A stretch of 64,000 bases of DNA from Escherichia phage vB-EcoP-XT73, in the sequence record OR757436.1; one strand, 5' to 3'. A program made the position numbers and the translations under genes. The notes beneath the pieces are model-generated. The model saw nothing but the letters and a program-made list of their open reading frames with translations, had not been told where the DNA came from and searched no databases. Below are positions 5,351 to 5,998 of the stretch, in pieces; positions within the stretch are counted from its first letter, which is position 1, and each line of letters begins with the position of its first letter.

Positions 5351-5998
5351 ATGATGGCGAAGAAAACAACACCTACAAGATATCGAATTCATGGAATCCC
5401 TATTAAATACATCTCAAACTATGAAGAGTTTTACAGAGTGAACTGGAAAGTGGTTCACAAGTTCTTCATGTACGATATCAGAGATTACCATGAAGCAGAA
5501 GATGTGGCACAGGAAGTGCTCTTGAACGCTTGGAGATTTGTCTTCGCTAAGCAGGATGAGAGAGTCCTAGAGGACGAGAAAGACCAAGAGCATATGACTT
5601 ATCGAGTCAAGAACATTATCTGGTCTATACGCTCAAATAGGCAGACTGTAGGAGACCGTCGTATCTACTCTATTCCAGAGGCTGATATGTTCCGTACTCC
5701 TGATATGGTTGATAGTCCTTTAGAGATTGCTATGGATAAGCAAGACTCTGTTGGTGACCCATTCATGGAGTCCCGTATCTTCTATTTCTTCCAAGATTTA
5801 AGTGATACGATGGATACTCAGAAGTTAGCTAATATGTTCTCGATGATTTTCTTGGGTATCCCCCATGATCACATCCAGAAAACTATTGGCATGTCACATG
5901 GAACTTTCTACCGTCGTTACGCAGAGTTAAAAGATCTGTATGAATATGTGGTAGAGAAGCACTTTGATAAAGAAGAACTACAAGGACTAGTAGCATGA
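5351..5998 (+). CDS. phage-encoded sigma factor (ECF/sigma-70-like)
   Basis: Region-2-like [16 protein letters not shown] and C-terminal region-4-like HTH ([22 protein letters not shown]). Confidence 0.65.

Follow-up and report, generated by a model that had tools for sequence, protein, structure and literature searches.

A phiEco32 gp36-type sigma factor gene in Escherichia phage vB-EcoP-XT73, with its co-factor gene and predicted promoters

Escherichia phage vB-EcoP-XT73 almost certainly encodes its own promoter-specificity subunit, an orthologue of gp36 of the Kuravirus phiEco32, and would be expected to operate the same sigma switch as that phage, given that the protein, its contact residues, the partner protein gp79 and the promoters are all conserved in the stretch of DNA analysed here (64 000 nucleotides of record OR757436.1, hereafter 'the window'; Table 1). 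The interval 5351-5998 (+), in which a first-pass annotation made from the letters alone had placed a phage-encoded sigma factor, corresponds exactly to an open reading frame of 215 codons, and this assignment is borne out by comparison with phiEco32 gp36 (phi32_36, ABY52837.1; 210 of 214 residues identical, i.e. 98%, over an equal length) and by a match to PHROG 1740, 'RNA polymerase sigma factor' (E = 1.8e-45). The protein also matches chain F of PDB entry 9m7y (E = 5e-144), a 3.4 A cryo-EM structure in which Escherichia coli RNA polymerase, together with gp36 and gp79, forms an open complex on promoter P68 (PMC12276001). As judged from its sequence, it is thus the near-identical counterpart of a CHARACTERISED protein, phiEco32 gp36, and in every respect that could be tested it is a member of the gp36 family defined by PHROG 1740. 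A tblastn search found it in 98 phage records, the hosts of which are all Escherichia or Shigella.

Table 1. Location of the sigma factor gene, its co-factor gene and gp36-type promoter elements in the window (positions count from the first letter of the window).
Feature	Position	Strand	Remarks
Sigma factor gene, orthologue of phiEco32 gene 36	5354..5998	+	
N-terminal sigma-2-like domain (gp36 residues 1-103)	5354..5662	+	Limits from PMC12276001; contacts conserved
C-terminal sigma-4-like domain (gp36 residues 138-214)	5765..5995	+	
gp79 homologue, 82 aa	60918..61166	+	tblastn of phiEco32 gp79: 100% identity, residues 1-82
P40, middle promoter -10 element TAATGTATA	3525..3533	+	Exact; phiEco32 36632-36640; Table S3 of PMC8948821
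P26, late element TAATGTATA, upstream of gene-26 homologue	12798..12806	-	phiEco32 26014-26022; Table S3 of PMC8948821
P13, late element TAATGTATA, upstream of gene-13 homologue	27859..27867	-	phiEco32 9101-9109; Table S3 of PMC8948821
P6, late element TAATGTAGA, upstream of gene-6 homologue	35546..35554	-	phiEco32 1677-1685
Candidate gp36 promoter, exact TAATGTATA copy divergent from P40	3453..3461	-	-35 region at ~3474-3487

The sigma open reading frame begins with two adjacent ATG codons, its formal opening at 5351 and a second at 5354, and a Shine-Dalgarno core (AGGA, 5344-5347) precedes them at spacings of 3 nt and 6 nt, respectively. Since both the annotated phiEco32 orthologue and the PDB chain begin at the second ATG, this is most likely the start, giving a gene product of 214 amino acids. 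The stop codon overlaps the ATG of the following open reading frame (ATGA, 5995-5998). Directly 5' of the sigma gene is a macro-domain (Appr-1-p processing) gene (4888-5331, +; Pfam Macro, E = 5e-9), a homologue of phiEco32 gene 37, and directly 3' lies an open reading frame of 89 amino acids with a DUF3310 domain (5995-6264, +; Pfam E = 9e-9). This single short frame stands in place of phiEco32 genes 35 ('GTP-binding') and 34 (dNMP kinase), which occupy ~1.26 kb, an arrangement common to phages LAMP, Bas92, Bas94 and O18-011. On a larger scale, the region is 93-99% identical to phiEco32-like coliphages (megablast) and the window is collinear with phiEco32 (EU330206), in reverse complement and with a circular permutation, and runs backwards through the phiEco32 sequence from roughly 39 400 to 1 and on from 77 554 to ~50 000.

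The published structure divides gp36 into two domains whose contacts can be followed residue by residue in the XT73 protein. Residues 1-103 sit on the beta-prime clamp helices in the manner of sigma-2 and recognize and unwind the -10 element, a long linker runs through the active-site cleft like sigma-3.2, and residues 138-214 sit on the beta flap-tip helix in the manner of sigma-4, where they touch the -35 region and dock the N-terminal helix of gp79 (PMC12276001). In that structure the clamp is contacted by D44, E47, E49, D50 and E54; the -10 region (AATGTA, -14 to -9) is read and opened by E79, H80, Y83, R84, W90, S91, S94 and N95; Y186 and R187 contact -34 and -37; the flap-tip helix is held by M138, I142, F166, L167 and F204; and helix alpha-1 of gp79 is held by F146, M164, L167 and I169 (PMC12276001). 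The N-terminal domain reads AATGTA centred near -11.5, with DNA opening from -11, and mutating these contact residues impairs transcription (PMC12276001). All 23 of the contact residues listed (24 listings, with L167 given twice; PMC12276001) are identical in the window protein, and most of them do not vary among 19 homologues, the most distant at 48% identity. The protein has a sigma-2 and a sigma-4 fold with a linker between them, and no regions 1.1 or 3.

Relative to gp36, the window protein carries only the substitutions K28R, F209L, I213V and T214A. It could be argued from these four changes, three of which (F209L, I213V and T214A) are clustered at the extreme C-terminus, that the XT73 gene is a decayed or diverged copy of gp36 in which promoter specificity has been altered or abolished. 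We consider this highly improbable, as all four substitutions are conservative, none falls on a listed contact residue, homologues differ freely at positions 209, 213 and 214, the reading frame is uninterrupted, and the genome retains the cognate promoters and gp79 in fully conserved form.

Sequence profiles of the sigma-70 family, in contrast to this close match with gp36, give a faint signal. The first-pass annotation had claimed region-2 and region-4 signatures and had proposed a search with Sigma70_r2 and Sigma70_r4; the region-2 part stands, weakly, with Pfam Sigma70_r2 reaching 19 bits against a gathering score of 24 (E = 0.0012, residues 25-63 only), while the region-4 part found no profile match, Sigma70_r4 and Sigma70_r4_2 giving nothing at E up to 10 with either the whole protein or residues 138-215 alone. 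The NCBIfam model TIGR02937 (sigma70-ECF) scored 23 bits against a cut-off of 42.9 (E = 4.9e-5), with an alignment that spans both halves of the protein. The region-2 sequence signal is marginal but real; region-4 similarity is structural and is not shown by Pfam sequence profiles, in agreement with Lavysh et al. 2022 (PMC8948821), where homology of gp36 to region 4 is described as absent. A profile of 19 homologues, run against the sequences of the whole PDB, had 9m7y as its only significant match, with ECF sigma factors appearing at E = 0.055-1.8, all on residues ~21-65; with ECF factors at E >= 0.055, sequence profiles alone cannot establish membership of the sigma-70 family. The homologue search itself returned 19 clusters, none with a Pfam domain and none forming a bridge to bacterial sigma factors.

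Such scores might be read as those of a helix-turn-helix DNA-binding repressor or activator, only superficially sigma-like, that does not replace sigma in the holoenzyme. This would fit the Pfam and NCBIfam matches below their curated thresholds, a weak contact of the family profile with the TetR-type protein 2eh3_A (residues 165-204, E = 0.06) and the name 'YerC' that one source gives to a relative, but it has already been refuted for the orthologue gp36 and has, in our estimation, next to no chance of being right for the window protein. No observation spoke against the sigma factor reading.

gp36 works with a co-factor, gp79, and not alone, and this partner, which was absent from the first-pass annotation, is encoded in the window by a gene whose product is identical to that of phiEco32 (Table 1). 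In phiEco32, gp79 displaces sigma-70 region 4 and stabilizes the open complex of the gp36 holoenzyme: it binds on the outside of the clamp and drives sigma-70 region 4 from the RNA exit channel, by which host and early phage transcription is turned off, and it docks on the C-terminal domain of gp36, by which gp36 promoters are stimulated 3- to 4-fold (PMC12276001). In vitro, sigma-70 transcription from rrnB P1 is nearly abolished by gp79 (PMC12276001).

The conserved intergenic motifs that had been suggested as targets of the sigma factor agree with this picture, as the published gp36 element, tAATGTAtA, from which transcription starts 6-8 nt downstream (PMC8948821), is present at the positions expected from phiEco32. 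Exact copies of TAATGTATA occur four times in the window against 0.71 expected (a number reached in none of 100 shuffles), and all four are intergenic. Copies with one mismatch are not enriched (15 found against 20.5 expected), so that only exact copies are informative. The P6 element, given as TAATGTAgA in Table S3 of PMC8948821, sits just after a terminator hairpin. P58 and P68 belong to the part of the genome outside the window. When the sites were anchored with AATGTA as -14 to -9, all of them, phiEco32 P58 and P68 included, were found to have an A at -34 and a purine at -37, the two positions that are contacted by Y186 and R187 in the structure (PMC12276001). Two of the phiEco32 promoters, P26 and P68, are initiated in vitro by gp36 with core enzyme (PMC12276001).

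For phiEco32 it is established that sigma-70 serves the early genes and gp36 the middle and late ones (PMC12276001), and published work on this orthologue (PMC12276001, PMC8948821) lends support to the earlier suggestion that the phage redirects host RNA polymerase to its own middle or late promoters. gp36 associates with the core RNA polymerase of E. coli and makes it initiate at specific promoters in vitro, and mass spectrometry detected both gp36 and gp79 in RNA polymerase from infected cells (PMC12276001); at 98% identity, the XT73 allele would be expected to bind core enzyme and initiate from specific promoters likewise. Under such a scheme, the first gp36 molecules would come from the host sigma-70 holoenzyme, gp79 would shut off sigma-70 transcription and, once gp36 is present, gp79 would dock on it and stimulate gp36 promoters. 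When 3200-6300 was scanned for the sigma-70 consensus, no such promoter was found immediately 5' of the sigma gene; for the relative SU10, a sigma-70 promoter directly upstream of its sigma gene is reported in the paper on that phage. P40 lies 58 nt upstream of the gene-40 homologue (3592-4338) and heads the gene row containing the sigma gene, and might thereby give positive feedback at a later stage, although this is uncertain. Just 3' of gene 40 there is a G+C-rich, terminator-like hairpin (AGCCACCTTCGGGTGGCT, 4360-4377, +) followed by TTTTTT which, if efficient, would make P40 transcripts stop short of the sigma gene.

One exact copy of the element is directed away from P40, on the opposite strand, and is absent from the six promoters of Table S3 (PMC8948821), although the 2008 and 2012 primary papers may mention it. 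Its upstream element, TTGGTAGTAGATAT, closely matches the one in the validated promoter P68, and the upstream sequences as a whole (tttGgtAgtagatat here against gattGgtAgtagatat in P68) are almost identical. Across phiEco32 and five diverged relatives (SU7, KBNP1711, EK010 and two IMG/VR contigs), the -10 and -35 elements of this copy are invariant and the spacer is variable, as would be expected of a working promoter. The copy would fire leftward through a 150-bp non-coding stretch, and its product might be a non-coding or antisense RNA; alternatively, the site might serve as a transcription-activated element, e.g. a replication origin.

The surroundings of this candidate are themselves unusually conserved. 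The intergenic core (3291-3470), with the phosphatase gene on one side and gene 40 on the other, shares 92-98% identity with SU7 and EK010 (Suseptimavirus) and KBNP1711 (Nieuwekanaalvirus), compared with only 76-86% for gene 40 and the sigma gene in the same three phages. Over three phage genera, the non-coding stretch is thus better conserved than the genes beside it. It contains a hairpin in which AATAGAGAAT (3296-3305) pairs with ATTCTCTATT (3347-3356), followed by TTTTT (+). No evidence for a structured RNA was obtained, an Rfam scan of 3200-3650 giving nothing below E = 0.17 and fold z-scores of 3291-3446 being modest on both strands (-1.8 and -2.1), and no credible minus-strand open reading frame was found downstream of the divergent copy. 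Upstream of the conserved region is an open reading frame of 212 amino acids (2620-3258, +) that aligns with the Ser/Thr phosphatase genes of SU7, EK010 and KBNP1711; phiEco32 has small open reading frames 41-47 in place of it, which indicates local mosaicism. A PLoS Pathog 2026 paper, which deals with the limitation of Kuraviruses by a prophage sRNA, was also considered and proved unrelated to the sigma gene.

In a distant clade, represented by three IMG/VR contigs of 82-90 kb (L012:1306, L013:1406 and L014:2001), the sigma factor, at 53-54% identity, has the changes H80N and R84Q, both of which fall on positions of -10 recognition. Upstream of their gene-40 homologue these contigs have AATGGATA in place of AATGTATA (AATGGA against AATGTA), with one site per contig in the flanks examined, and sigma factor and promoter may therefore have co-varied in this clade. 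Taken as a single proposal, a seventh gp36 promoter at 3453-3461 (-) that gives a leftward non-coding or antisense RNA or acts as a replication-origin-type element, together with a joint change of sigma factor and promoter in the distant clade, is tentative, and we regard it as somewhat unlikely to hold in full.

The sigma factor itself is already known in detail, and nothing about it is new here: it is a classic example of a phage substituting a protein of its own for the subunit with which the host recognizes promoters. gp36 was reportedly described in 2008-2012 and its structure solved in 2025. The first reading nevertheless picked out, from raw sequence, a very divergent sigma factor that Pfam scores below threshold, and the annotation of the window gains the start of the sigma gene, the partner gp79 and four mapped gp36 promoters. 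The only element that is possibly new is the divergent promoter copy in the gene 41/40 intergenic region, which would enlarge a known regulon only slightly.

Among known systems, phiEco32 gp36 is alike in genomic position, length, contact residues and promoter positions, and has an identical partner in gp79; it differs by the four conservative substitutions and by having genes 35 and 34 downstream, against one DUF3310 open reading frame in the window. More broadly, gp36, a protein of two domains, belongs to the sigma-70 superfamily, within which it is highly diverged, and resembles the group 4 (ECF) factors. Identity to bacterial ECF factors (SigE and SigK of Mycobacterium tuberculosis, SigW of Bacillus subtilis and AlgU of Pseudomonas aeruginosa) is only 12-19%, and compared with these proteins helix alpha-1 of gp36 is rotated by ~70 degrees, and its sigma-4-like domain, which is more compact and has a short recognition helix, binds a flap-tip helix rotated by ~100 degrees (PMC12276001). 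ECF promoters are bipartite, whereas those of gp36 are dominated by a single extended -10-region element, AATGTA; in our sites this is a single 9-mer, with only the purine at -37 and the A at -34 in common further upstream, and not a -35/-10 pair. gp36 has no described anti-sigma factor, its partner gp79 being a co-activator. The label 'ECF sigma factor' is consequently a loose one, in view of the sub-threshold profiles, the compact sigma-4-like domain and rotated flap-tip helix, the one-element promoter and the activating partner.

Two further phage systems bear comparison. SaPh711_gp47 of Salmonella phage 7-11, like gp36, is a late sigma factor of a phiEco32-like podophage of C3 morphotype, with promoters at corresponding positions, but it is only ~15% identical to gp36 and uses a bipartite promoter, GTAAtg-N16-aCTA (PMC8948821). 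Phage 7-11 also differs in having neither a gp79 homologue, nor a middle class of genes, nor host shut-off (PMC8948821). The AsiA/MotA pair of phage T4 is a functional analogue only, its proteins not being homologous to gp36 and gp79: in both systems a small protein disables sigma-70 region 4 and co-activates, and a second protein gives the new promoter specificity, a parallel that is also drawn in PMC12276001, but in T4 the host sigma-70 is kept and remodelled, whereas here it would be displaced by a sigma factor of the phage.
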